From an uncultured Christensenella sp. (GTDB lineage: Bacteria > Bacillota > Clostridia > Christensenellales > UBA1242): a stretch of DNA of 64,000 nucleotides. Positions 1,938-39,557 of the stretch are shown piece by piece. The translations under genes were made by a program, and so were the position numbers. Each line of letters begins with the position of its first letter. Position 1 is the first letter of the stretch. The stretch spans positions 24,904-88,903 of the forward strand of contig CAJTYR010000005.1 in assembly GCA_910584295.1 (NCBI GenBank), written 5' to 3'. Under the pieces are notes generated by a model. That model had not been told where the DNA came from. It made no database searches and saw nothing but the letters and a program-made list of their open reading frames with translations.

Positions 1938-3134
1938 ATGAAAAAATTTTGGATAACCTTTGGTGCCATAGCCTTTGCGCTTATTCTTGGCACTGGTATT
2001 ATTTTATTGTGCTGCCTACCAAAAGCAGCCCCATATAATGATAAAAACGACCCCGCAATTGAAATCCCTGTGGATCCAGAAACCCCACCGGAATTGCCAG
2101 ACGACAATCCGACAGACAAAGAAGAAGATGAAAATCCAGCTGATGACATTCCACCAGAAACCCCAAAAGAAGATGAGGATCCAAAGGAAGATGTGATTGT
2201 TGGCACTGTCGTTCCACTTTCATTTAATGACGGAGCTATCATTGGCTACAACGGAACGAATAATGAAATCACAATCCCAACATCTTATTCCTTTGGTGGA
2301 TATACAACAGAAGAAACAACCTTTGAAAATATTTGGGATTTTTATGAATGGTATCGCAACCAGCAATTTGAATGGAAAGGCAAAGAGATAACTATTCAAC
2401 TTGCAAATGGCGAAGATTATGTTATTTCCAACTCATCAAACATTTTGCCGGAACTTGAAAATATTGATGACGCCTTTCCTATTATATATAAAGAAAGAAA
2501 AGAAGTGTTTGTTGAAGGCAACGATTTTCAAGTGACATCTATTGCTGACAGAGCTTTTGAAAATGCAACTATTAAAAAAGTTGTTGTGCCAGAAGGTATA
2601 ACACATTTGGGCAATATGGCATTTTACAACTCAACATTAAAAGAGATTCAATTGCCAGAAAGTTTAATGTCAATTGGAAATTCTTGTTTTTCTGGCACAC
2701 AATTGGAACATATCAATCTTCCAGCAAACATTAAAACAATTTCAATTGGTTGTTTTGACAGATGTGAAAGACTTATAGACATTGACTTATCAAACATTGA
2801 AAGAATTGAGGACTCTGCGTTCTGGGGCTGCATTGGACTTAAAGAAGTGACATTCTCTGACAACTTGCAATATATTGCCTACGCGTCTTTCTTTGTCACA
2901 GAATCTCTTGAAGTTATGGATATTCCAAGCAGTTTGACTGAATATACAACTTTCTGGAATTGTTATGACGGATTAAAGAAATTGATTTTACGACCTAACT
3001 TTGTTTTTGACTTGTCTTATGATTATTCTCAACTTTCTTCCCATCTTGCGGGAATATATGTTCCAGATGACTTGCTTGAACAATACAAAGAACAATATCC
3101 AGAACTCAATATTCTTGCAATCAGCGAACTATAA
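1938..3134 (+). CDS. Membrane-anchored BspA-type leucine-rich-repeat (LRR_5-like) surface protein
   Basis: N-terminal TM helix (FGAIAFALILGTGIILLCCL), then an acidic Pro/Glu/Asp-rich linker. This is followed by repeats of the type I.IP.S...IG..AF..C..L..I.LP (e.g. VVVPEGITHLGNMAFYNSTLKEIQLPESLMSIGNSCFSGTQLEHINLPANIKTISIGCF). RBS AAGGAAG. Confidence 0.75.
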   Translation: MKKFWITFGAIAFALILGTGIILLCCLPKAAPYNDKNDPAIEIPVDPETPPELPDDNPTDKEEDENPADDIPPETPKEDEDPKEDVIVGTVVPLSFNDGAIIGYNGTNNEITIPTSYSFGGYTTEETTFENIWDFYEWYRNQQFEWKGKEITIQLANGEDYVISNSSNILPELENIDDAFPIIYKERKEVFVEGNDFQVTSIADRAFENATIKKVVVPEGITHLGNMAFYNSTLKEIQLPESLMSIGNSCFSGTQLEHINLPANIKTISIGCFDRCERLIDIDLSNIERIEDSAFWGCIGLKEVTFSDNLQYIAYASFFVTESLEVMDIPSSLTEYTTFWNCYDGLKKLILRPNFVFDLSYDYSQLSSHLAGIYVPDDLLEQYKEQYPELNILAISEL

Positions 3135-3805: not shown

Positions 3806-3820
3806 CTATTGGAGAATGAT

Positions 3821-4378
3821 ATGAGTTTTGGCAAACAAAATATTGATGAAATTATAAAACAATGTAAGGATATTGATGAACAGCTTTCGTCTGTCTCTGC
3901 TTGCGCCACTGGATACAGGCCACAAAAATGTATATGGGGCTTTAATGAAGGACATCCAAGATGTATTGATATGAAAAAACGTCTTAAAGAAAGAGTTGAG
4001 TATTCTATTGAAAATGGATATAAAATTTTTATTTCTGGAATGGCAATCGGGTTTGACACTATTTTTGCTGAAACTGTTTTGGAGTTAAAGAAAAAATATC
4101 CTTTTATAAAACTTGTTGCAGCACTGCCATGCAGAGATCAATATAAGCTTTGGAAGCCAGAGCAAATTGAAAGATATAAAAGGATTCTAAAACAATGTGA
4201 CGATGTCCGCTGTCTTTATGAAAGTTATAACGACAAGTGCATGCTTGAAAGAAATGACTATATGCTAAATTGTTCTTCTCTTGTGTTTGCTTTGTTTGAC
4301 GGAAAGCCCGGCGGAACAAAATACACAGTCAATAAAGCGAGGCAAAAGGGATTAAGGGTGGTAATCATTGAGCCATAA
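3821..4378 (+). CDS. SLOG-superfamily protein of the DUF1273 / YpsA-like type
   Basis: ATGYRPQK...ENGYKIFISGMAIGFDTIFAETVLELKKKYPFIKLVAALPCRDQ...W...RYKRIL...ERNDYMLNCSSLVFALFDGKPGGTKYTV matches the DUF1273 pattern (GhRP.K, hhsG.A.G.D, LK..YP.I+L..hhPF, RN.aMl). I prefer ATG 3821 (GGAGA RBS) to the track start 3809. Confidence 0.7.
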   Translation: MSFGKQNIDEIIKQCKDIDEQLSSVSACATGYRPQKCIWGFNEGHPRCIDMKKRLKERVEYSIENGYKIFISGMAIGFDTIFAETVLELKKKYPFIKLVAALPCRDQYKLWKPEQIERYKRILKQCDDVRCLYESYNDKCMLERNDYMLNCSSLVFALFDGKPGGTKYTVNKARQKGLRVVIIEP

Positions 4379-4423: not shown

Positions 4424-6322
4424 TTAATAAATTCTTTCTGGCAAATCGTCAACAGGATCTTTCTCAAAAATTATATCAGCTAATGGATCTACCTTTCGTG
4501 CTATATCATCTCTCGTGTCATAATAATAGCGTTTTTTTTCAAGCTCAATTTCCCCATACACTTGCTTAACATATTCTTCTCGTGCTTCGCCTGTAAGGTA
4601 TCTGTCTCTATCTTGGCAATGCCCAAATCTATAAACATCAGGTCTTGGTGCGTCGCCATTTCGCATTTTGACAACTTTGGCAAGTCCTAAAAGTTCAAGC
4701 GAATATTCACAATCAACCAACAATCCAATTTCTTCTTCGGAGAAATCTTTGCTTGCATATCTTTTGCAAATATCTGCTCTATGGTAATCAAAATCAGCAT
4801 ATTGATCAATAGGTGGATAAGCTCCCATAGAAGTATATTTTATTGTGCTTATCAATCGCAACATCTCATCTACTTCGTCATAAGAAGCGTCTAAGTTTTG
4901 TTTATTTAATTCGTTGACTTTATCTTTTACAAGAGGCAAAAGCATTTTTACAATTTCATTTTTTTTCTCGCCAACTTCTACATTGAGGAGAGCTGTATCA
5001 ACATATCTTATTTGTTCTTTCTTAAAAAGTGCTTTAAAAATCCTTTCAGCTTCTGGCACTTCAACAGTATCGAACTTTTCAAAGGAATCTGCACAAAGTG
5101 GCTTATTTTCTTCAATCAATTCGCCTAAAAGTTTTGCGTATGTGTATTTGTTGTCGCTTTTCTCATTTACTATACTATTTATGATAGATGTTTCCAATAC
5201 ATCATAAGCATAAGAAATTCCATGTTGAATATATGCTTTATATATACCTGCATAATATGTCTGCAAAACATCTTGCATTTTATCATCATCATGATATTTT
5301 TTCACAATTCTTTTCATTTGCACATCAAGGACATCTGCCAATAAATCTTGTTTAAGTTTCATTTCTTTGGCGTCTTGCGGTGCATAAGCAAAATATTGAG
5401 CAATTTTGCTTTTTTCTAACTCTTGCTGTTCTGCTTTTCCAATCTTTACAAAGAAATCTTCTTCTTCAAGCGTTCTCAATAATGCTTTGCATGGAATATA
5501 GAAATCAATTGCTCTTGAATAATATTTATATTCTTCTTTTTGCAAATCGTCCCAAAACAGACCTAAATCAGAAACAAACTTATTCTTTCTTAAAACGTCA
5601 ACTTCATGTGAATAATCCCAAAGCTCTTTCATACAAGCCACAGCAAATTGTCTTGCGTCAATTTCATGTTCTTGCAATAAATAAAGTGGAAAATCAAAAT
5701 TATCTTCTTCGCTAAAACGTTCAGTAAGAATATTCAAACATTTATCGTCAAGTAATAAAGACGCATTGTAAAGTGTTTCAACTTCGTGCCCAGCCAAAAG
5801 CAATTCTTTGGGTGATAAAATTGTATCTGCAACTTTTTGAGAATAATGACCAATTATATTAGCATAGCGTTGACTTTCTTCTTTTGAAAAATCAAATCTT
5901 TTATTATATGCGGCAACATTGCTTTGAACAAAGTGCTTATATTCGTGTGCAATAGTTGCCAGAATTTGAAGTTGTGATTTTCTGTCAAACACCCCGCCAT
6001 GATCATTTCGGTAATCTTTAAACAAAATTATTTCTTCATTTCTTAGAATATGGTGATTGCCCGGCAATATCTCATCTTCATAAGTATAGCCGCCCATTGC
6101 ATTTGTATCATTAAGCGCTTCGTCAATAACTCTCTGCGGATCCTTTTCTACAAAAGAAACTCTTATCGGGTGCAATTTAAGCTCTTTAAATTTAGGCTTA
6201 ACAAAGGCGTCAAGATATTCATTTAAGAGGTCTTGCATTTTGTCATAACCTACAATAACATCATTGTTTGCAAGTTTTTCAAGAAATTTCCTTTGTTTTC
6301 TATCAAGTTTCATAACTACCAC
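4424..6322 (-). CDS. Large hypothetical protein with an HExxH zinc-metallopeptidase-like motif
   Basis: 632 aa. IAHEYKHFVQ (HEYKH encoded at 5933..5947) is followed ~75 aa later by LQEHEIDARQFA. There is no TM segment or signal peptide. RBS AAAGGTGG. It has its own copy of the promoter that also precedes the radical-SAM gene. Confidence 0.5.
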   Translation of the reverse strand: MVVMKLDRKQRKFLEKLANNDVIVGYDKMQDLLNEYLDAFVKPKFKELKLHPIRVSFVEKDPQRVIDEALNDTNAMGGYTYEDEILPGNHHILRNEEIILFKDYRNDHGGVFDRKSQLQILATIAHEYKHFVQSNVAAYNKRFDFSKEESQRYANIIGHYSQKVADTILSPKELLLAGHEVETLYNASLLLDDKCLNILTERFSEEDNFDFPLYLLQEHEIDARQFAVACMKELWDYSHEVDVLRKNKFVSDLGLFWDDLQKEEYKYYSRAIDFYIPCKALLRTLEEEDFFVKIGKAEQQELEKSKIAQYFAYAPQDAKEMKLKQDLLADVLDVQMKRIVKKYHDDDKMQDVLQTYYAGIYKAYIQHGISYAYDVLETSIINSIVNEKSDNKYTYAKLLGELIEENKPLCADSFEKFDTVEVPEAERIFKALFKKEQIRYVDTALLNVEVGEKKNEIVKMLLPLVKDKVNELNKQNLDASYDEVDEMLRLISTIKYTSMGAYPPIDQYADFDYHRADICKRYASKDFSEEEIGLLVDCEYSLELLGLAKVVKMRNGDAPRPDVYRFGHCQDRDRYLTGEAREEYVKQVYGEIELEKKRYYYDTRDDIARKVDPLADIIFEKDPVDDLPERIY

Positions 6323-6376: not shown

Positions 6377-7204
6377 TTACAAAGAATACTCCCAATCATC
6401 TGTTTTCTTTCCGTCAGAATAAACAACTTTAAATGTTTGAACATTTGATTTGATTTTATATCCGCACAGTCTTTTTATGCTAAACTCAATTCCTTTATAA
6501 TTAAACACATCAACACAGCCGGTTTTTATCAATTGTTGAGAGGTTTTAGGCTTAATGAAATTTTTGAAGAAATTATATGCTTTTACATGTCCAACTGCAT
6601 ATTCTTCAAATCCATGATTTTCGCCAACATATTTCAACTCACTTATCTTAGCTGCGTCAACATTTAATTCTTTACAAAGGCTTGCCATTTTGTCAACAAA
6701 TATATCTTCTTCGCCAAGCCATAATTTTGTGATGACCATATTAAACGTTGCTTTAAACCTTTTCTTTCTCAAAGCGTTTTTCAAATTAGAAAATTTCATA
6801 TTGGCATGAATAATTTGATTGTTCTTTTCTTCATCATAATGGTGAAGTCCGATACGGACTTCGTCAACAAGATCATTTAAAATCTCAACTTTTTCTTCTG
6901 TCAACAAAGATCCATTTGTATTTAAAATGATATAGCTTTTATAAGGTCGAATTTTTCTTAGCAATTCGACTAACGCGTCAAAGTCTAAAAGAGGCTCGCC
7001 ACCTGTCACACCAACAATATTATAATCGCTTTCAGACAATATAGCTTCAACCATTTTGTCAACATTTATTTCTGTTCCTTTACGGTTATTCCTATCAATA
7101 CAAAACCAGCAAGCACCATTACAACGATTATTCATTTTAACTTGTAAAAATTTAGGCGCTTCGTCAGAACAGTGGCAATTCTTATTTGGAGTAAAATGTT
7201 TCAT
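6377..7204 (-). CDS. Radical SAM enzyme (subfamily not assignable by eye)
   Basis: CNGACWFC (CxxxCxxC, encoded at 7100..7123), GVTGGEPLL (SAM-binding glycine motif) and ILNTNGSLL. 275 aa with no SPASM-like Cys cluster. Confidence 0.8.
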   Translation of the reverse strand: MKHFTPNKNCHCSDEAPKFLQVKMNNRCNGACWFCIDRNNRKGTEINVDKMVEAILSESDYNIVGVTGGEPLLDFDALVELLRKIRPYKSYIILNTNGSLLTEEKVEILNDLVDEVRIGLHHYDEEKNNQIIHANMKFSNLKNALRKKRFKATFNMVITKLWLGEEDIFVDKMASLCKELNVDAAKISELKYVGENHGFEEYAVGHVKAYNFFKNFIKPKTSQQLIKTGCVDVFNYKGIEFSIKRLCGYKIKSNVQTFKVVYSDGKKTDDWEYSL

Positions 7205-7216
7205 AAAATTCCCTTT

Positions 7217-7250
7217 TTGTGATTATATCACAATTATAAATTTTTGTAAA
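7217..7250 (-). promoter_or_regulatory. Promoter copy B (TTTACA-17-TATAAT) overlapped by a 17-bp perfect palindrome TTGTGATTATATCACAA
   Basis: -35 at 7250-7245 and -10 at 7227-7222 on the minus strand. The palindrome at 7217..7233 covers the -10. The site lies in the divergent region between the radical-SAM gene and the cargo cluster. Confidence 0.6.
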
Positions 7251-7330
7251 TATCTAAGCAAAGTTTTTACAAACATGATGAAGTTTTATGATCACTTTTT
7301 TATTAAAAACATATACAAACTTATAGAAAA

Positions 7331-7344
7331 TATGTTATAATGTC
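7331..7344 (+). promoter_or_regulatory. Extended -10 promoter element (TATGTTATAATGTC), copy 1, upstream of the cargo cluster
   Basis: TGTTATAAT has its hexamer at 7336..7341. The identical 14-mer recurs at 9249..9262. Confidence 0.5.
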
Positions 7345-7373
7345 CATAAAGAACATTAAACAAAGGGCTTTCA

Positions 7374-8468
7374 ATGATAACATATAAAATCAATACAACA
7401 AAACTAAAAGAAAATTATGAAATGTTTGCAGGCTTTGGACCTGTTTATTTTCCTATTAAAACAAATCACAACCCAATAATTTTAAAAGCACTTAAAAAAC
7501 TTGACTGCGGATTTGAAACTGACAGCATTGAACATATTAAAAAAGTTTATTCAAGAAAATCCGTTGACAAGATTATGTTTTCAAATGTTGCAAAATCTTA
7601 TGAGGATATTGCGTGGGCAATAAAGCATAAAATTTCTTATTATACAATTGATGATGAGAACTCACTTAAACAAATTATTGACTTAGCAATTAAACACAAA
7701 TTGCCAAAGCTGAAAATCAATGTAAGACTAAATGTATATGAGTGTTTTAAAGAAGAATTTGATAAAAAAGGTGCAACAGACTCTCGTCTTGGCGCGATTG
7801 TAAAAACTGCAACAAAACTTTTGAAAATTATTAACAAAGAAGATCGCATTAAAATAGAGAAAGGAATAAGTTTCTATATTCAAGCTGAAATTCACAATGA
7901 CGAAGATTGCTTGATAAAGATGTTGGAACACATAACAAAGTCTTTCAACAAAAATATAGGCATTGATTTCATCAACATTGGTGGTGGAGCAAATAAAGAA
8001 CGCTTGCTTGACACCATACCAACAATTGAAAAAACTCTTAAATATTTTGGTGCAAAATATATCGTCTTAGAGCCCGGAAGATTTATGGTTGGTGATGTTG
8101 AAGATGTTTATATCCCATGCGTTAGAGTTGTTGACAATTTGACACTTAAAACCGAAGTTGTGGCTTCGCTTGAACTTGGGATTTATAATGGCTTAATAGA
8201 TATGCAGCTTCACAAAAGACAATTTGAAATTTTTGCCTACAATGGCGAAAAATTGATAAAACTTGAAGAAGCAAACAACAATCAAAAACTCGTTTTGCGT
8301 GGACCAACCGCCGACTCTCTTGATGTAATTGGTATTTATTCTTTGCCAGACTGCAAGATTGACAACAAAACAATATTTGTTATAAAAAATGTTGGTGCTT
8401 ATGTTGAAGTTTTCAACTCTGCTTTCTCTGGGCAAGTTAAAACTTGTTTTGTTGAGGTGTGCCAATGA
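7374..8468 (+). CDS. Fold-type III PLP-dependent decarboxylase (Orn/DAP/Arg decarboxylase family)
   Basis: The PLP-lysine context YFPIKTNHNPIILKALKKLDCGFETDS resembles YAVKAN..P.IL..L...G.GFD.AS. Also INIGGGANK (glycine loop) and LEPGRFMVG. Confidence 0.7.
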   Translation: MITYKINTTKLKENYEMFAGFGPVYFPIKTNHNPIILKALKKLDCGFETDSIEHIKKVYSRKSVDKIMFSNVAKSYEDIAWAIKHKISYYTIDDENSLKQIIDLAIKHKLPKLKINVRLNVYECFKEEFDKKGATDSRLGAIVKTATKLLKIINKEDRIKIEKGISFYIQAEIHNDEDCLIKMLEHITKSFNKNIGIDFINIGGGANKERLLDTIPTIEKTLKYFGAKYIVLEPGRFMVGDVEDVYIPCVRVVDNLTLKTEVVASLELGIYNGLIDMQLHKRQFEIFAYNGEKLIKLEEANNNQKLVLRGPTADSLDVIGIYSLPDCKIDNKTIFVIKNVGAYVEVFNSAFSGQVKTCFVEVCQ

Positions 8469-9208
8469 AAAAACTTAAAACTTGGAAAGGATATAATTGG
8501 CTTGACTTGGCTTTGATACTTTCTGGCATTATTGCTGTGACTGTCACAGGAATTTTGTTTAAATCAGAATGGTTTATTATTGCAAACACTCTTTTGGGAT
8601 TGCTATGCGTTTTCACACAAGCCAAAGGAAAAATTGCCACGCAATTTATTGGTGTTGCTTACTTTTGTTTTTATATCTTCATCTGCTACACACAAAAGTT
8701 TTATGGCGAAGCACTTTTATATTTGATAATCATGCTGCCTATGTATATTTATGGTGTTATCCATTGGCTTACACATAGAGATAAGAAAGATAATGTTGTC
8801 ATTGTCAGAAGCAATCTTTCAAAAAAAGAGTGGTTGTTTTCATCTCTCGCTTTCGTTGGTGTTGGTGTTGCTGTTTTCTTTATTTTACGAGCACTGCAAA
8901 CAAATCAACTTGTGACAAATACTTTTTCATTTTTGTCAATGCTGCCCGCTGTTTATCTTTTAATCAGAAGATGTAAGTGGAATCAAGTTGCATTTTTGAT
9001 AAATGACTTTATCGTTCCTATTCTTTGGATTTTTCTTGTGGTGCAGGGAGACTTGTCTTTCATTCCAATGTGTATATATCATGTTTTTCAAATTGCTTAT
9101 GATGTATATGGTTTATTTGAGTGGATTAAACTTGAAAAGAAGCAAAAGCAAGAAATTGTCCTTAATCCACAAAATGATGAAGAAAACAATCAAAATCCGT
9201 CTATTTAG
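8465..9208 (+). CDS. pnuC: PnuC-family (nicotinamide riboside-type) transporter
   Basis: Multi-TM protein with the PnuC-like N-terminus WLDLALILSGIIAVTVTGILF...ANTLLGLLCVFTQAKGKIATQFIGV...FYGEALLYLIIMLPMYIYGVIHW. ATG 8465 overlaps the upstream stop (ATGA), and GAGGTG is the RBS. Confidence 0.65.
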   Translation: MKKLKTWKGYNWLDLALILSGIIAVTVTGILFKSEWFIIANTLLGLLCVFTQAKGKIATQFIGVAYFCFYIFICYTQKFYGEALLYLIIMLPMYIYGVIHWLTHRDKKDNVVIVRSNLSKKEWLFSSLAFVGVGVAVFFILRALQTNQLVTNTFSFLSMLPAVYLLIRRCKWNQVAFLINDFIVPILWIFLVVQGDLSFIPMCIYHVFQIAYDVYGLFEWIKLEKKQKQEIVLNPQNDEENNQNPSI

Positions 9209-9220
9209 GCGGATTTTTTA
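9192..9220 (+). terminator. Rho-independent terminator after pnuC
   Basis: AAAATCCG(9192-9199)...CGGATTTT(9210-9217) followed by a T-run. The pnuC stop codon lies in the loop. Confidence 0.6.
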
Positions 9221-9248
9221 TATTAAAATGGTGCAAAAAGCGAAGTTT

Positions 9249-9262
9249 TATGTTATAATGTC
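9249..9262 (+). promoter_or_regulatory. Extended -10 promoter element (TATGTTATAATGTC), copy 2
   Basis: The 14-mer is identical to 7331..7344, with the hexamer at 9254..9259, 15 nt upstream of the 9275 start. Confidence 0.5.
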
Positions 9263-9274
9263 TTTGAGGTTTAT

Positions 9275-10318
9275 ATGGATCTTCAAAATTTAGTAAATGA
9301 ATATATAAACAATCAGCTTTTGAAAGTTGATAATTTGTCAACTGAATTAAATGGAACAATGATTGATAGATTGTTTGCAAAGAAGTTTAGAAAATACTCT
9401 ATTGACCCACAAGTGAGAATTGATGTCGAAGCAAAATTGAACAATATCATCAGCAAAAAATTGCCTTTGACTTTTGTGCCAAGTTTTGGTGGATATAAGC
9501 ATTGGTGGAGTCCAACATATCCAACAATTGACCGGGCAGAGATTTTTAATATGAAATTTATGCTTGAATATCTTGCACCAATCTGTGCCAACTACACTGA
9601 CAACAAAAGCACAATCGAATATGAAAGCGAAGAAATTATTTTAAGTGAACTCAACAATGTTCCACAATCTGGACTGGACGAATACACAAATACTTTTAGA
9701 AAGGCTTTGGAGTTTTTCAACAAAAATCAAAAAGTTGTTGAAATGAAATTAAGTCTTGCAAGAGAACAATATAAAGACTATAACTTTGACAAACAAAAAT
9801 TGCTTAAACGTATTGAAGAAATGATGTCGGATTACACCGATCGTTTCAACAGTTATGCCCCAGACGATCAAGCAAGAAGAATACAAAAAGCAAGAACAAA
9901 TTTCAAACTTGACGGAGTTATTGATTATTCAAACTTGTCAGACGAAGAAAAGGAAGAACTTTACAAAAAGTCTCGAATATTAAACGAAGCCTTCTTGGAC
10001 GCCGATTATGAAGTGCGTGGCAATGATTTCTTTGAAAAAGAAAACAATATTCCACTGCTTTTCTCTTTCGGACTTGGACCGGGTGGAGAAGCTTGGCTAC
10101 ACATTGGATCAAGTAAATCTTCAATGACAGACTTTTGGGCAGGCACAGGAATTTTGGAAATAAGAGAAAATGGACAAATCATTGAAAGAATTTTGAGTAG
10201 GACTCAATTTGAAAATATTAAAGACAAACTTGTGAAAGTTGATGTTGAAAGTCCAATTTCAAACATTTGTTCCCCACTTTCTTACATCTATGTTTATGAA
10301 GGACAACTTAATTTCTAA
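9275..10318 (+). CDS. Hypothetical protein (347 aa), no recognisable motif
   Basis: Long ORF with GAGG RBS, first gene after the internal promoter copy. Coding is supported by length and tight packing with its neighbours. Confidence 0.6.
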   Translation: MDLQNLVNEYINNQLLKVDNLSTELNGTMIDRLFAKKFRKYSIDPQVRIDVEAKLNNIISKKLPLTFVPSFGGYKHWWSPTYPTIDRAEIFNMKFMLEYLAPICANYTDNKSTIEYESEEIILSELNNVPQSGLDEYTNTFRKALEFFNKNQKVVEMKLSLAREQYKDYNFDKQKLLKRIEEMMSDYTDRFNSYAPDDQARRIQKARTNFKLDGVIDYSNLSDEEKEELYKKSRILNEAFLDADYEVRGNDFFEKENNIPLLFSFGLGPGGEAWLHIGSSKSSMTDFWAGTGILEIRENGQIIERILSRTQFENIKDKLVKVDVESPISNICSPLSYIYVYEGQLNF

Positions 10319-10334
10319 TTTAAAGGAGTAAATT

Positions 10335-10763
10335 ATGATTTCAGAGGACAGAAAAAAACATATTTGGGCTGTTGCAAAATTCCTAAAAGAATACGCCATT
10401 TCACAAAATATGCCACAAAAAGATGTTGAAGAACTCTACACTCTTGGACTCTTGCATGACATAGGTTATGAATTTTTGGAAGAAAAAGATTACACGAAAC
10501 ATGAAATTTATGGTGGCAAACTTTTGAAAAAACAGGGTTATAAACATTGGAAGGAAGTATATTATCACGGCGTGGCAAACTGCAAATATCAAAGCAGATT
10601 GTTGGATTTGTTGAACTGGGCAGATATGAGAATTGACAGCAGTGGCAATGAAGTGTCATTAGACGGTCGCCTTGAAGAACTTTCCAAAAGGTATAATGTT
10701 CCTATAAAAGAACTTAATTCATACCCAATTGTTTGCGAGCTTAAAGCCAAAGGTTTTAAATAA
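10335..10763 (+). CDS. HD-domain (metal-dependent phosphohydrolase fold) protein
   Basis: 142 aa with H...LGLLHDIGY (the HD doublet) and a further His (YYHG). RBS AAAGGAG. Confidence 0.6.
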   Translation: MISEDRKKHIWAVAKFLKEYAISQNMPQKDVEELYTLGLLHDIGYEFLEEKDYTKHEIYGGKLLKKQGYKHWKEVYYHGVANCKYQSRLLDLLNWADMRIDSSGNEVSLDGRLEELSKRYNVPIKELNSYPIVCELKAKGFK

Positions 10764-10772
10764 GGAGTTAAT

Positions 10773-11501
10773 ATGAAAAAAGTTGCATTAGTCACAGGCA
10801 GCACAATGGGAATTGGACTTGCCACTGCCAAAAAATTGGCAAAGAAAAATATTGTCATTATCAACAGCAATAAAGCAGTTGACAAAGATTTTATTGAAAA
10901 AGAATTTGGTAAAAATGCGGAAGTTTATTTTTACAAAGCTGACATCTCAAACAAAGAAGATTTGACAAAGATGTGCGATTGGATTAAAAAGAAATTTGGT
11001 AGACTTGATTATCTTTCTGCACACGCAGGAATTATCCCTTTGCCATGTGGAATTGATGACATTACAGATGAAAATATCCACAAAACAATAGACACAAACT
11101 TGATTGGGACTTTCAACACGGTTAAAATTTTTGGAAATCTTATCAAAGAAACTGCAAAGAAAGGATCAATTGTTTGCACAACATCTGTTGACGGAATTAT
11201 TGGCGAGCCTTACGCTGTGATTTATTCCACAACAAAAGCAGGCATAATTTCACTCACAAAATCCTATGCAAGATATTTTGGCGAGAACATTCGTGTGAAC
11301 GCAGTTGCACCGGGACTTATCGACACCCCACTGACAGCAAGCTCTGGCGAAGATCCAAAAGCCACAACAGATTTTTCAATCATCAAACGCATGGGCAAGC
11401 CGGAAGAAATTGCCAACGCAATTGCTTTCTTGCTTTCCGATGAAGCAAGTTTTATAACCGGTCAAATTCTTGCAGTTGACGGTGGATTTACATTAAAGTA
11501 A
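10773..11501 (+). CDS. Short-chain dehydrogenase/reductase (FabG-like SDR)
   Basis: TGSTMGIGLATAKKLA (TGxxxGIG), NSN/AGI, the catalytic YSTTKAGIISLTK (YxxxK) and PGLIDTP. Confidence 0.85.
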   Translation: MKKVALVTGSTMGIGLATAKKLAKKNIVIINSNKAVDKDFIEKEFGKNAEVYFYKADISNKEDLTKMCDWIKKKFGRLDYLSAHAGIIPLPCGIDDITDENIHKTIDTNLIGTFNTVKIFGNLIKETAKKGSIVCTTSVDGIIGEPYAVIYSTTKAGIISLTKSYARYFGENIRVNAVAPGLIDTPLTASSGEDPKATTDFSIIKRMGKPEEIANAIAFLLSDEASFITGQILAVDGGFTLK

Positions 11502-11514
11502 AGGGAGAACATAA

Positions 11515-12618
11515 ATGAAAAAACTCAAAATTGGGATTATTGGAACAGGTGTTGGAATAAGGACACATTTGAAAGGATTTAGAACTGTTGAAAATGCAGA
11601 AGTTGTCGCAATCGCAGGTAGCTCACTTGCAAGAAGTAAAGAGTTTGCTGAAAAGTTTGAAATCCCCGTTGCTTGCGCTGATTATAAATAATTATGCGAC
11701 CGAGATGACATAAATCTCATTTGCATAACAACACCAAACAGATTTCATTTTGACATGGTGAAATATGCCCTTAAAAGTGGCAAACATATTCTTTGCGAAA
11801 AGCCACTGTCTGACGACAGCAAAGAAGTTAAAGAGTTGATTAAACTTTCAAAAGAATATGAGGCTCTAACTCTTGTTGACCACCAACTTAGATTTAATCC
11901 GTATATTCAAAAGATAAAAGATTTAATACAAAAAGATATTCTTGGGAAAGTCTATTTGGTTAAAATCAATCAACAGGGCTCTGGCTTTGCAAATGAGAAT
12001 GCAACTTGGTGTTGGAGTTTTGACGGATCACAAGGTGGTGGTGTTCGCTTGGCTATGGCTTCTCACTTGACTGATTTGTTGCAATATTGGTTTAATTCCC
12101 CAAAGCCAACAAGTGTTATGGGCTATCTCAATCCAATCACAAAAGAAAGAAAAGACACAAAAGGCAAAGTGAGAAAAGTGTCTGCAAGCACCATTTGCAA
12201 CGCAACAATAAACTTTGCTGATGAAATGCAGGCAATCTTTACAATCAATGCCGGATCTTACATGGAATCTCGTTTTGATATTCAAATATTTGGTGACAAA
12301 GGTGAAATCACTTTCTCTTTGCAAGACAAATTGAATTTGTATTTGCGTTCTAATGTTGGCGTTAAGCAGAAAGTTGAAGTTGAAGGAGTTTTTGACGATG
12401 AAAAAGAAAATAAAGCTTCAATATTTTCTGGCTCGTTTAGATATTTTGCACCAAAACTTATCAACTCTATTTTGAAAAATAAATATAAACCTATAAGCGA
12501 ATGTGCAAATTTTACAGACGCAGAATATAACTTGAAAATTTTGGACGCAATTAAAGAGTCCGCAAACACAGGTTTATCTGTGCAGATAAATAAACCTAAA
12601 ACAAATAAAAATGTTTAG
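11515..12618 (+). pseudogene. Gfo/Idh/MocA-family oxidoreductase interrupted by an in-frame TAA (11689..11691)
   Basis: My translation from ATG 11515 gives MKKLKIGIIGTGVGIRTHLKGF...EKFEIPVACADYK*LCDRDDINLICITTPNRFHFDMVKYALKSGKHILCEKPL. This is the Rossmann GxGxxG plus the EKP motif in one frame, with a stop where family members usually have E (DYKEL). Confidence 0.8.
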
Positions 12619-12634
12619 TCTTGCAGGAGTTTTA

Positions 12635-13561
12635 ATGGATATAAAACAAGAAATCAAAGAAAGAATTGAAAAAGCAAAGGCGCTCAAAAAGACAATCAGT
12701 TTTGAATGGTTTGAGCGATTTTTTGATATGCTTGAAAAGTCTGGTGTTAGTGATGAAATTATCCGTAAAACAATGGACTATGCACTAAGTGCTGACGGAC
12801 TTGAAAGAACAACAGCAAAAGGCAACAGTGAAGGTTTTTACAAAAACAAACAATCAGCACAAGCAATCAGCGGTTTTTTTGAATATATGAGAAACATGGC
12901 ACAAAACTATGGGCAAGAAAGATTTAAAGACTTTCTTGAAAACTCACTTTTGCAGATTGCTGATGAATATGAAGAATATAAACAAAATGGTTTTGGCAAG
13001 CGCACATCTTTGAAAAATCTATTTTTGAAACATCTTGTGCTTGAAAATCCAGAGGATGTTGTTTTTGAATATTTTGGAACGCCAATTGATAAACTTTCAG
13101 CAGATGAAGATTTAAGTTTGATTTATTTAAAAATCGCAGGAATGGAAATCGGAGATATAAAATTTCAAGAACAAAATGGAAATCCACCGGCAATACATTT
13201 CACAGATTTTCGCACACTAAACGGACTTGAAAAAATGGGTTTGGGCAGTCACCTATTCACTGAATTTTGCAAACAGATGACGGAACACAAAACTGGTTAT
13301 CCCGTGATTGCGTGGAATGTTATGAAAGGTCATGACGGAGAACAAGTTTATGCCAAATGGGGAGCCTATCCAATTATGGTTGGATGTGAAAACGATTTTT
13401 GGGAATATGACACAACGCCGCTAACACCAGAAGAAACTGATAAATTTTATGGCGATCACGGAAGATTGTTTTACTTTGCACCAGAAACAATTGAAAAATT
13501 GGCAACAAAGCAAAACACAAGATATGGGCAACAGAAACAAATTGAAGAAATAACTTTGTAA
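12635..13561 (+). CDS. Hypothetical protein; the C-terminal part may be GNAT-like
   Basis: I prefer ATG 12635 (GCAGGAG RBS) to the track start 12611. LEKMGLGSHLFTEF loosely resembles the acetyl-CoA motif R/Q-x-x-G-x-G/A. This is a weak call. Confidence 0.5.
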   Translation: MDIKQEIKERIEKAKALKKTISFEWFERFFDMLEKSGVSDEIIRKTMDYALSADGLERTTAKGNSEGFYKNKQSAQAISGFFEYMRNMAQNYGQERFKDFLENSLLQIADEYEEYKQNGFGKRTSLKNLFLKHLVLENPEDVVFEYFGTPIDKLSADEDLSLIYLKIAGMEIGDIKFQEQNGNPPAIHFTDFRTLNGLEKMGLGSHLFTEFCKQMTEHKTGYPVIAWNVMKGHDGEQVYAKWGAYPIMVGCENDFWEYDTTPLTPEETDKFYGDHGRLFYFAPETIEKLATKQNTRYGQQKQIEEITL

Positions 13562-13572
13562 AGAGGTAGAAT

Positions 13573-14673
13573 ATGAATTTAACTGAAATAAACAAAAACA
13601 TTGTGGACAGAAGTGACTTGTTTTATTGGCAAGCAGAAAGACGTGTCACAGTGCAAGAAGCTGCTGAAATTTGGAAAGATAGACATTCAGCTATTAAGAA
13701 TGACGAACTTTTAAAAAAGGTCAACAAAGTTCTTAAAAATGAAGTTTGTGTTTCCATTGACGAGGTTGACCCAGAAAAGCAAGAAGCAAATGGAAGCGTC
13801 AACTCAAATCGCATTGGATATTTGAAGAATGGTAAAAAGGTAATTATTCGCTGTCATCCACGTGGGTTGAGAAATGGTTATTTTTATGTGGAATCTCTTG
13901 CTGCCAATCTTTTAAGTGAAAATGGACTTTCAACCTACAAGACTTACGCAATACATGATTGTGAAAATGAAAATGATTGTGCCTTTCAAGTGATTGAAAG
14001 AATTGACGGACACAATATTGACAACTTTTTGCAAGAACATCCAGAATGTGAACAAAAACTTGTTTTTGAAATGGGTAAAACTATGGCGAAAATCCATAGA
14101 ATACAAGTTGACGGATTTGGTCCTTTTGACAATGAACTTGCCAAGAAAGGTGTTTTGAAAGGCATACACAAATCTTTTTACGATTCTGTTCTTGCAGGAC
14201 TTGACTTTGATTTAGACACTCTTGTTGAACATAAAATTTTGACAACAGCAAAAGCAAAAAAATATAAGCAGCTTTTCACAAACAGCAAAGATACACTTTC
14301 TTGCAAACAGGCTGTTTTGGTGCATAATGATTTTGCCGACTGGAATTTGCTGACAGACGGAAAAACAATCAATGGAGTTTTGGATTTTGACGAATGTGTT
14401 GGAAGTGACCCCGTGACTGATATTGCTTGTTGGAGCCTATTCTTTACACCAAGCAGATTGAAAATCTTTTTGGACGGATATTTCACAATTGCAAAACGCC
14501 CAGAAAACTTTGAACAAAAATTTCAATTGTTAAAATTAAGGTATTCCCTTTCAAAAATGACTTTAAGGACAAGACGCTATTTCTATGAGAAAAGCGACTT
14601 TATGAAGAAAATGATTGAAGTTGGAAAAGAGAGTTTGAAAGCAGGCGAAGATTATTTTGGACTTTCTAAATAA
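13573..14673 (+). CDS. APH/choline-kinase-fold phosphotransferase
   Basis: VLVHNDFADWNLL (HxDxxxxN catalytic loop) followed by GVLDFDE (DFD metal-binding motif). Confidence 0.7.
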   Translation: MNLTEINKNIVDRSDLFYWQAERRVTVQEAAEIWKDRHSAIKNDELLKKVNKVLKNEVCVSIDEVDPEKQEANGSVNSNRIGYLKNGKKVIIRCHPRGLRNGYFYVESLAANLLSENGLSTYKTYAIHDCENENDCAFQVIERIDGHNIDNFLQEHPECEQKLVFEMGKTMAKIHRIQVDGFGPFDNELAKKGVLKGIHKSFYDSVLAGLDFDLDTLVEHKILTTAKAKKYKQLFTNSKDTLSCKQAVLVHNDFADWNLLTDGKTINGVLDFDECVGSDPVTDIACWSLFFTPSRLKIFLDGYFTIAKRPENFEQKFQLLKLRYSLSKMTLRTRRYFYEKSDFMKKMIEVGKESLKAGEDYFGLSK

Positions 14674-14775: not shown

Positions 14776-15372
14776 ATGAAAGTAATCAGCGAAGAAAAAG
14801 TTGGATTGGTGCGAGACTTTATAAAAGATTTTCAACAAAAAGAAGGGAGAGCGCCTTCATTCAGACAAATTGCCAAAGGATGTAATTTCCCAAGCATACA
14901 AACAGCACAAAAGTATGTTGCCATTCTTCAAAGTCGTGGCGAAATCGAGAAAACAGATTCTGGCAAAATCGCAGTCCCTTTCAATCTGCAAAAAGGCCGA
15001 ACAATAATAGCCCCATTGGTCGGAAGTATTGCGTGTGGTCCCCAAATACTTGCAGTGCAGAACATTGAAGCCACTTATCAGCTTCCAACAGCTATTTTTG
15101 GTGATGAGCCAACAATGATATTGACCGCCAAAGGAAACAGCATGACCGGCGTTGGAATTTACGACGGTGATTTGATTGTTGCAAGCATTTGCAACGAAGC
15201 TAAAAATGGCGATGTTGTTGTTGCTTTAATTGACGACTCTGCAACTGTCAAAACTTACTACAAAAAGAATGGCAAACACATCTTACACCCCGAAAATCCA
15301 GAGTATGAAGATATTTTGCCAGAAAATCTTATTATACAGGGAATTGTAAAACACACAATACATAGTTTTTAG
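14776..15372 (+). CDS. LexA/SetR-like S24-peptidase repressor
   Basis: N-terminal winged HTH (PSFRQIAKGCNFPSIQTAQKYVAILQSRGEI), a cleavage-site region PLVGSIACGPQ, catalytic Ser in KGNSMTG and Lys in ATVKTY. Start moved to ATG 14776 (GGGAG RBS). Confidence 0.8.
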   Translation: MKVISEEKVGLVRDFIKDFQQKEGRAPSFRQIAKGCNFPSIQTAQKYVAILQSRGEIEKTDSGKIAVPFNLQKGRTIIAPLVGSIACGPQILAVQNIEATYQLPTAIFGDEPTMILTAKGNSMTGVGIYDGDLIVASICNEAKNGDVVVALIDDSATVKTYYKKNGKHILHPENPEYEDILPENLIIQGIVKHTIHSF

Positions 15373-15574: not shown

Positions 15575-15678
15575 ATTTTAATAGTGGACCACAGAGTCCC
15601 AGACGTATGACAAAATATCCACATGGACCTTAATTGTCCGGATAACGAAATTTATCCTAAACATTTAAGGTTTTTTTA

Positions 15679-15710
15679 ATCCCGCATGTTTAGGCATGTG
15701 GGATTTTTTT
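15679..15710 (+). terminator. Rho-independent terminator
   Basis: ATCCCGCATG...CATGTGGGAT stem (one G-T pair) followed by TTTTTTT. Confidence 0.7.
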
Positions 15711-16922: not shown

Positions 16923-17363
16923 ATGAACGAACAATATACAATCAGAGTTTATGACACAAGACTTGTTTCAAAGGTTGAAGAACTCTACAAAAATTGCAAA
17001 GACATTTACACGTCAAAAAATCCTTTCATGGTAGATTGCTTGGTGAGAGGCATGGAAGTTATTGAAAAGGATTTGTTTGGCACAAAGAAAACTGACAATG
17101 TTGAAGAACTTTACAACGAAGTTAAACTGACAATCAAAAAGCTTGACATCCTTTTGAAGCTTTGCGAGAAAACTGCACGAGAGAGCATTGCAAACATTAA
17201 GATCAATCAAAATCTTTTGTCTTGCAATTATAAAATGCTTTTGGGCTTGTCAGACAACAATCCAGAGCCAAGAGAAAAAGTGGAATCTGGCATGTATGAC
17301 AATCTTCCTGCACGCTTGGAAGAAGTTTTGGAAGAAGTCTTGCAACATTTTTTGGGTAAATGA
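16923..17363 (+). CDS. Hypothetical protein (possible relaxosome accessory factor, by position only)
   Basis: 146 aa, RBS AAGGAG. Its stop overlaps the relaxase start (ATGA). Confidence 0.55.
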   Translation: MNEQYTIRVYDTRLVSKVEELYKNCKDIYTSKNPFMVDCLVRGMEVIEKDLFGTKKTDNVEELYNEVKLTIKKLDILLKLCEKTARESIANIKINQNLLSCNYKMLLGLSDNNPEPREKVESGMYDNLPARLEEVLEEVLQHFLGK

Positions 17364-18550
17364 GCGTCCCAAATGTAAACCTATTTATTGGATATGTTGA
17401 CTGCTTGAAAGGAAAAAGCAGCCAAGACAAATATGTGAAAGAAAATTTTGAAACAAGACGATTTTATTCTGCTGGCAAAGATTATGATTATGTTAAATAT
17501 GTGCAAAATGGAAGCAAAGAAAAATTAGATTTTGTTGACTATTCTGGGAATGAAGAAAAAAGCAAAGGCATTTTCAATGAAAATGGCCTTATGGATGAAA
17601 AACAAATAAAAGAATTGCGAACAAAACTAAGGGATTGTCAAAGCCCAATTTGGCATGGTGTTATTTCTTTTACAGAAGAATTTGGAGACAAGTTTTGTGA
17701 CGATTATGAAAAGGCATATAACCTTATGAAAACGCAGTTGCCGAAGTTTTTTGAAAATGCAGGCTTACAACCGGACAATATGGTTTGGTTTGCAGGACTA
17801 CACGAAAACACTGACAACAAGCATATTCATTTTTCATTCTTTGAGAAAGCCCCTTTAAGAATGAGACAACGCCACAAAGGATTGTTTTATTCAAATGGAA
17901 TGATAAACAAAACTGCATTGAGCAAGTTTAAAGTCGCTTGCGAACTTCATTTACTGAACATATACAAACAAATAGGAAAAAACAGAAACGCTCTTACAAA
18001 CTCAATGAAAGAAGGACTAAATTTAGGAGCATTTATGAAAAATATCAAATCTCTCATCTTTATTCTTCCAGAGAAAGGAAGATTAAGCTATGAAAGTGAG
18101 AACATTAAGCCATTCAAACCACAAATTGATTTGATTGTAAATTCAATTATCCACTCAAACAAAGACTTAAAGCAAAAATTTGATAACTTTGACAAAATTT
18201 TGACTATTCGAGACAATGAACTTTTGAAAGCCTATTCCAAACTGAAAATAAATTACACAGACAAGCTTTTGCATGACAAGTGTATTTATGACATCTACCG
18301 CAGGCTTGGAAATCTTGTTTTGCTTACAGTTAAAGAAATTCGCATGGAACAAAGAAAACTGGACTATGAAACAAGAAATCGTCTTGTAAGAAAGAGAATT
18401 GACAAGTTTAAAAGAAAAGCACTTATCAAAAAGTGTATGCAACTTAGCGAACTTGTCAATCGAGAAATCGTATCTGCCTTTCAGGAATATTTGGACAAGC
18501 TTGAAGAAGCAAATTTCAAAATTATGAAAGAAGAAGGGTTTTTGGATTGA
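17360..18550 (+). CDS. Relaxase/mobilisation nuclease (MobL/MOBQ-like)
   Basis: Histidine-triad-like motif GLHENTDNKHIHFSF. The N-terminal Tyr-rich region YVKYVQNGSKEKLDFVDYSG...SKGIFNENG and WHGVISF fit MobL-type relaxases. It is translationally coupled to the T4CP gene. Confidence 0.65.
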   Translation: MSVPNVNLFIGYVDCLKGKSSQDKYVKENFETRRFYSAGKDYDYVKYVQNGSKEKLDFVDYSGNEEKSKGIFNENGLMDEKQIKELRTKLRDCQSPIWHGVISFTEEFGDKFCDDYEKAYNLMKTQLPKFFENAGLQPDNMVWFAGLHENTDNKHIHFSFFEKAPLRMRQRHKGLFYSNGMINKTALSKFKVACELHLLNIYKQIGKNRNALTNSMKEGLNLGAFMKNIKSLIFILPEKGRLSYESENIKPFKPQIDLIVNSIIHSNKDLKQKFDNFDKILTIRDNELLKAYSKLKINYTDKLLHDKCIYDIYRRLGNLVLLTVKEIRMEQRKLDYETRNRLVRKRIDKFKRKALIKKCMQLSELVNREIVSAFQEYLDKLEEANFKIMKEEGFLD

Positions 18551-37955: not shown

Positions 37956-38168
37956 ATGAACAGAATTCTCGAACTTTCGGCAGTCATGTTTAAAGAATAT
38001 CCAGACTGCGTAAATATCAAGCAATTGCAAGATATGCTTGGAATAAAACGAACAAAAACTTATGAATTACTAAAAAATGGTGAAATTAAAGCAAAAAAGA
38101 TAGGCAAAGACTACAAAATACCAAAGTATAATGTGCTTGCCTATCTTTTTAATGAGGAGCAATTATGA
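37956..38168 (+). CDS. xis: Excisionase-family HTH DNA-binding protein
   Basis: 70 aa. NIKQLQDMLGIKRTKTYELLKNGEIKAKKIGKDYKIPKYNVLAYL fits the HTH_17/excisionase pattern. It is directly coupled (ATGA) to the integrase gene. Confidence 0.65.
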   Translation: MNRILELSAVMFKEYPDCVNIKQLQDMLGIKRTKTYELLKNGEIKAKKIGKDYKIPKYNVLAYLFNEEQL

Positions 38169-39447: not shown

Positions 39448-39557
39448 TTTTGCAAAAATTTTGCAAAAATGATACCATACGATACTATACAAAACTGTCC
39501 GATTTTAAACGGAATTAAGCCACTTTTTTGCAGAAATTCGTCACGAATTCGTCACAA
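39448..39557 (+). promoter_or_regulatory. Right-arm repeats: TTTTGCAAAAATTTTGCA plus three tandem 11-bp units containing AATTCGTCAC (putative arm-type sites)
   Basis: The 18-mer at 39448..39465 equals 1839..1856. AATTCGTCAC occurs at 39526..39535, 39537..39546 and 39548..39557, with a degenerate fourth copy AATTCGTTA near 39598. Confidence 0.6.

Follow-up and report, generated by a model that had tools for sequence, protein, structure and literature searches.

A 64,000-nucleotide stretch of DNA from an uncultured Christensenella sp. (contig CAJTYR010000005.1 of assembly GCA_910584295.1, positions 24,904 to 88,903; hereafter the window) contains, at 7374-14673, a pair of cargo operons of an integrative and conjugative element (ICE) that integrates into a tRNA-Arg gene. 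Its signature enzyme, a protein of 347 residues (U347; positions 9275-10318, plus strand), is a divergent, distant homologue of the IsnA/PvcA/Dit1 isonitrile synthases. It is a member of that superfamily though not of the curated family, and represents a new divergent branch in a new gene context and in new hosts. The cluster is a mobile and enlarged form of a module found repeatedly in the chromosomes of uncultured gut and rumen anaerobes, in which the IsnA-like enzyme is accompanied by a dedicated PnuC-type facilitator, a pyridoxal 5'-phosphate (PLP) decarboxylase-like enzyme without the canonical active-site Cys (PLPdeC), short-chain dehydrogenases/reductases (SDRs) and a GNAT protein. Our tentative reading, to which we give a probability of about 0.4, is that the cluster is a mobile module joining an amine to a keto-sugar phosphate.

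A preliminary description of this DNA, made from the letters alone, had left U347 as an unknown. This stands in so far as no Pfam or NCBIfam family claims it: like the 308-residue protein encoded further downstream, it gave no match in Pfam, NCBIfam or PADLOC, and an exact-protein lookup found it not to be on record. It is not unclassifiable, however, since its homology to isonitrile synthases was recovered both by Foldseek and with a family profile. An AlphaFold2 (AF2) model built on 30 homologues (pLDDT 89, pTM 0.89) was compared with the PDB, and the top eight Foldseek matches were all chains of PIsnA (9dhm, 9dh4) or PvcA (3e59), aligned over the whole length of the protein (332-348 columns, E 1e-8 to 3e-7, TM-score 0.66-0.71). 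The next tier, consisting of tyrosyl-tRNA synthetase, cyclodipeptide synthase and NadE, was weaker by five orders of magnitude. At the sequence level, a narrow profile of 30 sequences (A1) found no match in the PDB, and only the broadened profile of 68 family sequences (A3) reached PIsnA (9dhm, E 1.5e-7; 9dh4, E 2.4e-7) and PvcA (3e59, E 8.6e-4).

Just three residues, K75, E89 and Y137, are invariant in the family, and they align with the Lys of FPTKS, the Glu of DMAE and a Tyr in PIsnA. The near-invariant P64, G72, P83, A88 and G111 also align to PIsnA motifs, as do the P-x-F, Y-P-G and S-D/E motifs, and the N-terminal core motifs (FPxK, DxAE, YPPG, SD, Y) are kept in the family. PF05141 (DIT1_PvcA) was matched by 21 of the 68 family representatives at E ≤ 0.01, below its gathering score of 26.4 bits (best E 6.6e-7), and no other Pfam family recurs among these representatives. 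In IsnA, an alpha-amino group is condensed with C2 of ribulose-5-phosphate to yield the isonitrile (PMC7949033, PMC11350588), and the product of yeast Dit1 is N-formyl-tyrosine (PMC7345447). The homology thus moves the logic of the cluster to the chemistry of an amine and a keto-sugar phosphate, displacing the riboside uptake and kinase trapping that had been proposed as its core.

The family comprises 324 clusters at 90% identity and 377 representatives at 50% identity (E ≤ 1e-3), which their sources name only "hypothetical protein". A scan of 185,579 species genomes yielded 55 loci, all in uncultured gut or rumen metagenome-assembled genomes (MAGs) labelled Clostridia/Christensenellales, Bacilli/"Tenericutes" or Patescibacteria, with a few Muribaculaceae or Ignavibacteriales. 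A scan of IMG/VR for phage-borne relatives found none.

Neighbouring genes within 4.5 kb were clustered for 68 loci. SDRs (18 loci), PLPdeC (17) and PnuC (12) ranked highest, followed by unknowns of 578 and 202 residues that accompany a pair formed by PLPdeC and a 355-residue IsnA-like protein. When 125 proteins flanking the gene in non-redundant loci were sorted by Pfam family, PnuC (7), Orn/Arg decarboxylase (4), GNAT (4) and SDR (3) led the count. Partners do recur, then, but they are PnuC, PLPdeC, SDR and GNAT and not the kinase. The dependence of PnuC on a kinase, assumed earlier, was not borne out: in four loci (L001, L027, L046 and L054) PnuC is adjacent to the U347-type gene and no kinase is present. 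Representative gene orders are as follows, with identities in brackets:

L001 and L021: PnuC (60%), x, U347 homologue (92%), GNAT, SDR
L018: PnuC, x, U347 homologue (95%), APH369, SDR, SDR
L027: PnuC (73%), U347 homologue
L046: U347 homologue, GNAT, PnuC (67%), HD (72%), 2-hydroxyacid dehydrogenase
L054: U347 homologue (44%), PnuC (33%)
L049: U347 homologue, SDR, beta-lactamase fold, methyltransferase, SDR (62% to the window SDR)
About 10 species: PLPdeC (25-29%), IsnA-like protein of 355 residues
L075 and L076: MFS, SDR, SDR::IsnA-like fusion
L073: methyltransferase, abhydrolase, IsnA-like protein, aminotransferase

PnuC lies at most two genes from the enzyme in at least five independent contexts. 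By our own estimate ~0.07 would be expected by chance, so that, assuming at most one PnuC per genome, the association is far beyond chance. The facilitator also co-diverges with the enzyme, a 33% PnuC standing beside the 44% homologue and PnuCs of 60-73% beside homologues of 78-92%; as the one identity tracks the other, an old functional pair is argued. The SDR::IsnA-like fusion (P0133) is natural; the MFS/SDR and the methyltransferase, abhydrolase and aminotransferase settings are those of distant family members. Orthologues of two further window proteins occur near U347 homologues, the HD protein after U347, GNAT and PnuC in the unrelated locus L046, and the SDR in L049. In L010 (GCA_037193285.1), an IsnA-like gene (88%) is flanked by NUDIX and HIT/SAM-synthetase genes; most genes of this 673-kb contig are without a Pfam match.

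The genes and signals of the cluster and its immediate surroundings in the window are:

6377-7204, minus strand: radical S-adenosylmethionine (radical-SAM) protein of 275 residues with a CNGACWFC motif, unclassified (PF04055, 63.5 bits)
7374-8468, plus strand: PLPdeC, fold-type III PLP decarboxylase-like enzyme of 364 residues (PF02784, 72.7 bits)
8465-9208, plus strand: PnuC-family facilitator of 247 residues (PF04973, 90.1 bits, cutoff 27.3; TIGR01528, 70.5 bits, cutoff 42.45)
9192-9217, plus strand: terminator-like hairpin of 11 pairs with a T-run, dividing unit 1 from unit 2 (consensus match only)
~9251-9259, plus strand: extended -10 element TGTTATAAT upstream of the U347 gene (consensus match only)
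9275-10318, plus strand: U347, IsnA/PvcA/Dit1-superfamily (isonitrile-synthase-like) protein (fold and family profile)
10335-10763, plus strand: small HD-domain phosphohydrolase of 142 residues (PF01966, 36 bits)
10773-11501, plus strand: classical SDR of 242 residues with TGxxxGIG and YxxxK (PF13561, 189 bits)
11515-12618, plus strand: Gfo/Idh/MocA oxidoreductase gene, interrupted (PF01408 and PF02894 on the C-terminal part)
12635-13561, plus strand: protein of 308 residues with an N-terminal helical domain (~1-135) and a C-terminal GNAT fold (~140-300) (AF2 model, pLDDT 84)
13573-14673, plus strand: APH-fold small-molecule kinase of 366 residues with HNDFADWN (HxDxxxxN) and DFD (PF01636, 63 bits; PF03881, 29 bits)
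14776-15372, plus strand: LexA/S24-type repressor of 198 residues from the ATG at 14776 (PF00717, 91 bits; PF01726; 86% orthologue in related ICEs)

All open reading frames of the preliminary description are present at its coordinates, and its calls of radical-SAM, PLPdeC, PnuC, HD, SDR, Gfo/Idh/MocA and APH proteins were upheld by Pfam and NCBIfam. The Gfo/Idh/MocA gene needed its limits corrected to 11515-12618 with an in-frame TAA, and the start of the second unknown was placed at 12635 (308 residues). The division of the plus strand into two units is also sustained: the PLPdeC stop and the PnuC start share an ATGA at 8465-8468, indicative of translational coupling, and the hairpin and the extended -10 element follow. 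Unit 2 has spacers of 10-20 bp, lies on one strand and runs on into the LexA/S24 repressor gene of the ICE, which ends it; another terminator-like hairpin (15678-15705) comes after this gene.

PLPdeC retains, in alignment, the PLP lysine (PIKTN), the GGG of the glycine loop and EPGR. The Cys of the canonical active-site motif GPxC(D/E) is missing, the window clade having GPTADSLD at this point and the other clade CGDSSD or CGNSAD; both PLPdeC clades that are paired with an IsnA-like gene lack this Cys. In ornithine decarboxylase (ODC), Cys360 protonates C-alpha, and its loss (C360 mutants) diverts the reaction to decarboxylation-dependent transamination. A C-terminal PF00278 domain was not detected in the window enzyme. 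Its best PDB matches are ODC and diaminopimelate decarboxylase (DAPDC) (E 1e-10 to 1e-8), and its scores against NCBIfam equivalogs all fall far below the cutoffs (lysA, for example, 76 bits vs 298). The subfamily is small, with 34 clusters. The paralogous clade (25-29% identity) is found directly upstream of the genes for 355-residue IsnA-like proteins in about 10 MAG species.

In a clade of 55-58% (L002-L004, L038-L045, L067), the pair of PLPdeC and IsnA-like genes is always preceded by two conserved unknowns, located ~3 kb upstream of the IsnA-like gene. They encode proteins of ~578 residues and of ~202 residues, the latter with a probable N-terminal transmembrane helix, and neither matched Pfam or PADLOC. 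In L004 this four-gene block adjoins a serine recombinase. The 578-residue, 202-residue, PLPdeC and IsnA-like proteins could constitute a four-gene system. PADLOC, run on the window cluster together with these 578- and 202-residue neighbours, gave no match other than a generic radical-SAM/pVip one.

The PnuC protein, whose start is most likely the ATG at 8465, is a bona fide Pnu family member. Its PDB match is the nicotinamide riboside transporter 4qtn (E 1.7e-14). The cluster contains no domain of the NadR, TPK or RibK/flavokinase type, its kinases being of the APH fold only.

Six related loci (L015-17, L019, L020, L023), in MAGs labelled Christensenella sp., Eubacteriales or Firmicutes, have the same ICE backbone (MobL 87%, type IV coupling protein 93%, LexA-like 86%). 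Their gene order is a 628-residue protein on the minus strand, PLPdeC, PnuC, U347, APH369, SDR246, SDR242, Gfo, a 307-residue protein, APH366, 2-hydroxyacid dehydrogenase, NIPSNAP and LexA-like. Identity to the window is 86-91% for PLPdeC, 95-97% for PnuC, 93-94% for U347, 95% for SDR242, 81-88% for the intact Gfo, 51% for the 307-residue protein and 84% for APH366; a paralogue of the kinase (49%) is also encoded in these relatives. The tight packing and co-conservation noted earlier are therefore real, PLPdeC, PnuC, U347, SDR, Gfo, the 307/308-residue protein and APH being syntenic in all six loci. The window has an HD gene in place of the APH and SDR of L015-17, and is without the 2-hydroxyacid dehydrogenase and NIPSNAP genes. 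L020 and L021 belong to one MAG (CAOJXO01), which carries a chromosomal set of PnuC, x, U347 homologue (92%), GNAT and SDR as well as the ICE-borne cluster (93%); here the host, which has its own gene for the signature enzyme, gains another through the ICE.

The cluster genes are maintained under purifying selection, with dN/dS (the ratio of nonsynonymous to synonymous divergence) of 0.04-0.12 between the window and L016 for every shared gene, the interrupted Gfo gene included. Two point changes that are likely to be damaging are seen in the window copy. In the DWAE motif of U347, beside the invariant E89, position 87 is Arg (W87R, CGG at 9533-9535). This position is Trp (TGG) in 29/29 other sequences of the close alignment and in 8/8 close orthologues, and across the family it is Trp in 64 of 68 representatives and Phe or Tyr in three others; it is the sole otherwise unanimous column from which the window sequence departs. 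In the Gfo gene, a G-to-T change turns GAA, the codon of the orthologues, into TAA at 11689-11691 (codon 59), truncating the product after codon 58; the intact orthologue has 367 residues and is 81-88% identical. The window gene is either a pseudogene or the result of a sequencing error. A long-standing pseudogene was rejected given its dN/dS of 0.07, which indicates that the stop is recent or an error. The two changes probably impair the module in the window, and reflect either decay in this host or assembly/sequencing errors.

We hypothesize the following pathway. The PLP enzyme would make or unmask a primary amine, its substrate probably being a basic or diamino acid. The IsnA-like enzyme would then condense this amine with a keto-sugar phosphate at its carbonyl group; the sugar, either ribulose-5-phosphate or a ketose related to it, might be supplied by the APH-fold kinase, SDR and Gfo protein from a riboside or polyol imported by PnuC. 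The product would be an N-C1 (isocyano or formamido) or an N-glycosyl-type amine. The GNAT-domain protein might cap a second amine and the HD protein remove phosphate, and PnuC would carry precursor or product across the membrane. No Fe(II)/2-oxoglutarate-dependent partner of the IsnB/PvcB kind was found in the window cluster or among the commonest neighbour families, so that, if an isonitrile is made, decarboxylation would need to be PLP-dependent, which fits strict anaerobes. As the preliminary description had stated, the cluster matches no described pathway, and we found no paper describing this family or gene combination, literature searches on PIsnA, on IsnA homologues of anaerobes and on PnuC and kinase neighbourhoods having yielded only general papers on IsnA, ScoE and Dit1. 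The earlier interpretation therefore holds for the ICE cargo, the packing, the co-conservation and the want of a described counterpart; it fails on the roles of U347, the radical-SAM protein and the kinase.

Several observations weigh against this pathway. The window protein itself did not match PF05141 at E ≤ 0.01 and is only 11-16% identical to IsnA, and for these reasons its reaction may differ from that of IsnA. A PLP decarboxylase could not act on an alpha-amine already converted to an isonitrile, so that both the substrates and the sequence of reactions are guesswork. The search for a riboswitch that might name the ligand found none, either at Rfam gathering scores (whole window and five PnuC/U347 loci) or at E ≤ 1 (7100-9400), and no other pointer to the ligand emerged. 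Many copies of the family stand alone in housekeeping surroundings, which is unusual for secondary metabolism. In several Clostridia MAGs (L005-L009, L026, L031) the IsnA-like gene (83%) lies between ruvC and ruvA in the operon ruvC-ruvA-ruvB-queA-tgt-yajC, and some other copies adjoin aspS. A strict linkage of the PLPdeC subfamily to the IsnA-like enzyme was ruled out, as members at 55% and 47% identity occur without such a gene. The composition of the cluster varies among the ICE relatives (HD vs APH and SDR, with or without 2-hydroxyacid dehydrogenase and NIPSNAP), and the 308-residue GNAT protein moves independently of U347 in small mobile elements. Finally, synonymous divergence (dS) between the window and L016 forms a mosaic along the cluster (0.38-1.27), indicating recombination within it.

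These last points are the substance of one alternative, namely that the cargo is a mosaic with no single pathway, a hotspot of the ICE having gathered independently useful enzymes of which only sub-modules such as PLPdeC-PnuC-U347 cooperate. The differing composition of the relatives, the restriction of the radical-SAM gene to the window copy, the threefold variation in dS and the terminator-like hairpin that parts the two transcription units would all be expected of such an assembly. The same applies to the 308-residue protein, which is closer (69%) to copies accompanied by abhydrolases, DUF2441, RidA, hexapeptide transferase and HAD proteins, without U347, than to the copy in the ICE relative (51%). 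We nevertheless regard a mosaic as unlikely, because PnuC, PLPdeC, SDR, GNAT, HD, 2-hydroxyacid dehydrogenase and APH genes recur beside U347 in unrelated chromosomal contexts, an SDR::U347 fusion exists, and the genes are spaced by 10-20 bp on one strand. Uptake and trapping of a riboside or vitamin, in which PnuC imports, the APH-fold kinase traps and the other enzymes remodel, would account for a PnuC above the TIGR01528 equivalog cutoff with 4qtn as its structural match, for a kinase whose sequence motifs look active, and for hosts with reduced genomes (Christensenellales-, RF39- and Patescibacteria-type MAGs), in which salvage might be expected. This includes the salvage of NAD precursors, suggested earlier as a buffer against NAD-depleting defence, for which no specific support emerged: genes for NadR, NMNAT, Nampt, NadE and NUDIX proteins are all absent from the cluster, and PADLOC reported no defence or anti-defence system apart from the generic radical-SAM match. 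With PnuC and U347 adjacent in four loci lacking a kinase, and with the IsnA-like enzyme and the PLP decarboxylase left unexplained, we find riboside or NAD-precursor uptake quite improbable.

Modification of a drug or xenobiotic was the other early suggestion: the APH-fold kinase and the GNAT protein would inactivate an aminoglycoside-like or other amine- or hydroxyl-bearing antibiotic, and the ICE would spread the resistance. The two folds do lie side by side, AAC(2')-Ia is among the Foldseek matches of the 308-residue protein, the best PDB sequence matches of the kinase are hygromycin and aminoglycoside kinases, and relatives of the 308-residue protein occur in mobile elements with hexapeptide acyltransferases, esterase-fold proteins and an APH. 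However, those PDB matches have E-values of just 3e-4 (hygromycin kinase, the best) to 5e-3, and the kinase scores far below the cutoff of every antimicrobial-resistance model in NCBIfam (APH_3p, 30.4 bits vs 205; others, ~20-22 bits vs 400-725). Aminoglycoside resistance thus gained no specific support. Strict anaerobes are of low intrinsic susceptibility to aminoglycosides, and PnuC, the IsnA-like enzyme and PLPdeC would have no part in it; we consider a role in drug modification very doubtful. A last candidate is the catabolism or repair of sugar-amine adducts (Amadori/Heyns ketoamines or opine-like compounds), with import by PnuC, phosphorylation by fructosamine-kinase-like APHs, cleavage of the imine or ketoamine by the IsnA-like enzyme and processing of the sugar by the dehydrogenases. 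The kinase exceeds the gathering score of the Pfam Fructosamin_kin family (29.0 vs 22.4 bits), sugar-type oxidoreductases (Gfo/Idh/MocA and SDR) are present, and the IsnA reaction itself begins with an imine of an amine and a ketose phosphate (PMC7949033). Yet the APH model of the same clan scores 63 bits to the 29 of Fructosamin_kin, no deglycase or FrlB-type gene is present and the PLP decarboxylase has no obvious role, so that adduct catabolism, too, seems to us to stand little chance.

A bolder proposal may also be made, which we put forward as speculative and doubtful. The family would be an O2-independent branch of the superfamily making isocyano or formamido derivatives of decarboxylated amines in strict anaerobes of gut and rumen and in Patescibacteria, with PLPdeC replacing the O2-dependent IsnB/PvcB step, PnuC as a dedicated carrier and ICEs spreading the trait among Christensenellales-like hosts. 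Were it true, the gut microbiome would harbour a hidden class of small metabolites that bind metals or inhibit enzymes.

Among the other proteins, the GNAT-like C-terminus suspected in the second unknown was recovered by structure only (Foldseek, E from 7.5e-4, probability 1.0), with matches to PA3270-like proteins, TacT/AtaT, SpeG and AAC(2')-Ia. The acyl-CoA loop reads KMGLGS, of which M201-G-L-G204 is invariant (Q/R-x-x-G-x-G/A type). The family is small (11 clusters), and the window protein shares 51% identity with the copy in the ICE relative vs 69% with copies in small MobL/integrase elements lacking U347. Such elements occur in tandem in L011-L014 as mobilisable MobL and integrase units without an IsnA-like gene, and their recurring cargo consists of two abhydrolases, a 310-residue helical-GNAT protein, DUF2441, RidA, a hexapeptide acyltransferase and a HAD hydrolase, with or without NUDIX, Inositol_P and APH. 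The radical-SAM protein gave only generic sub-threshold matches (MoaA, 52 bits; viperin NF038283, 40.2 bits; PADLOC pVip, 45 bits) and weak PDB matches to YydG and BtrN. An identity as a prokaryotic viperin was rejected, since MoaA scores higher and the NF038283 cutoff is 180 bits. It had been counted as a member of the cluster, but no homologue was found in the 72 related loci examined, which makes it unique to the window copy and places it outside the conserved unit.

The ICE-borne status proposed earlier is confirmed, because a repeat of the tRNA-Arg 3' end occurs together with an integrase, a relaxase, a coupling protein and a VirB4-like ATPase. The element is ~38.2 kb long, as delimited by the two copies of an exact 44-bp direct repeat that k-mer extension revealed, and also encodes a helix-turn-helix protein and a sigma-70 region-4 protein. 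Its main features are:

1629-1672, no strand: attL, 44-bp exact direct repeat of the 3' part of tRNA-Arg; left end of the ICE
4424-6322, minus strand: protein of 632 residues, divergent conserved neighbour of the cluster (58% orthologue at the equal position in L016, L017, L019, L020 and L023)
17360-18550, plus strand: MobL relaxase (PF18555, 99 bits; 87% orthologue in ICE relatives)
18547-20715, plus strand: type IV coupling protein (93% orthologue, annotated T4SS-DNA_transf in L015-17)
27616-30237: VirB4-like ATPase, inside the ICE
38165-39442, plus strand: tyrosine integrase at the right end of the ICE (PF00589, 90 bits)
39741-39815, minus strand: tRNA-Arg(TCG) (ARAGORN and Rfam), of which the 3' 44 nt (39741-39784) are attR

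The 632-residue protein had no match in Pfam, NCBIfam or PADLOC, and no near-identical DNA was found among PLSDB plasmids or INPHARED phages. Just within both ends of the ICE lies an 18-bp direct repeat, TTTTGCAAAAATTTTGCA (1839-1856 and 39448-39465), the left copy ~170 bp from attL and the right one ~280 bp from attR. The two may be arm-type binding sites of the integrase. Two BspA-type leucine-rich-repeat proteins are encoded within the element (1938-3134 and 32445-33584), as is a YpsA/SLOG-family protein (3809-4378) between attL and the cluster, for which L015 has a 71% YpsA orthologue at the equal place. Directly past the tRNA-Arg gene and outside the ICE, a second type IV coupling protein gene (40058-42064; T4SS-DNA_transf, TraG-D_C) suggests another conjugative element, adjacent or remnant, at the same tRNA hotspot. 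Farther on, a giant reading frame for 4913 residues (45636-60377, minus strand) lies beside a PLD-like gene of the cardiolipin-synthase type (44156-45604).

These results describe a large unannotated sister branch of the isonitrile synthases, with its 377 representatives at 50% identity in strict gut and rumen anaerobes and reduced-genome bacteria. Identities of 83-95% are maintained between copies whose genomic surroundings differ greatly. Its linkage to a PnuC-type transporter and to a PLP decarboxylase lacking the Cys gives the branch a new gene context, and the module is mobile on ICEs. Sequence and models together suggest a fold and a likely chemistry for two families of hypothetical proteins, U347 and the 308-residue protein. 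The cargo of many orphan PnuC-family transporters and the occurrence of isonitrile or formamide metabolites in gut anaerobes become testable.

In comparison with known systems, U347 resembles IsnA/PvcA/Dit1 in its whole-length fold, in profile-level homology, in the P-x-F...K, D-x-A-E, Y-P-G and S-D/E motifs and the conserved Tyr, and in the placement of its gene with tailoring enzymes. It differs in its partners, which are PnuC, PLPdeC-like enzymes, SDRs (one as a fusion) and GNATs, with no Fe(II)/2-oxoglutarate IsnB/PvcB. Isonitrile synthases come from organisms with an aerobic or facultative way of life (Pseudomonas, Photorhabdus/Xenorhabdus, cyanobacteria and fungi, for example), and to our knowledge are always paired with O2-dependent partners, whereas the hosts of the U347 family are strict anaerobes and reduced-genome lineages, and many of its copies reside in housekeeping neighbourhoods. 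PLPdeC shares PF02784, the PLP lysine, the Gly-rich loop and EPGR with the fold-type III decarboxylases (ODC, DAPDC, arginine decarboxylase and carboxynorspermidine decarboxylase), but is without the GPxC(D/E) Cys, lies far under the equivalog cutoffs and belongs to a small subfamily.

As in the Pnu systems (PnuC/NadR for nicotinamide riboside, PnuT/thiamine kinase and PnuX/flavokinase), the facilitator adjoins cytoplasmic enzymes that might trap a substrate, and a kinase is encoded in the same operon set. Here, however, the conserved partner is the IsnA-like enzyme and not the kinase, and there is no NadR, TPK or RibK homologue and no riboswitch was found. The ICE itself is ordinary: like other MobL-relaxase ICEs and integrative and mobilisable elements of gut Firmicutes, it integrates into a tRNA gene with duplication of the 3' end, encodes a tyrosine integrase, MobL, a type IV coupling protein, a VirB4-like ATPase and a LexA/S24 repressor, and carries variable cargo adjoining the regulatory module. 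It differs from them in its cargo, which holds no recognisable resistance, defence or carbohydrate-utilisation genes and is instead an undescribed metabolic module.

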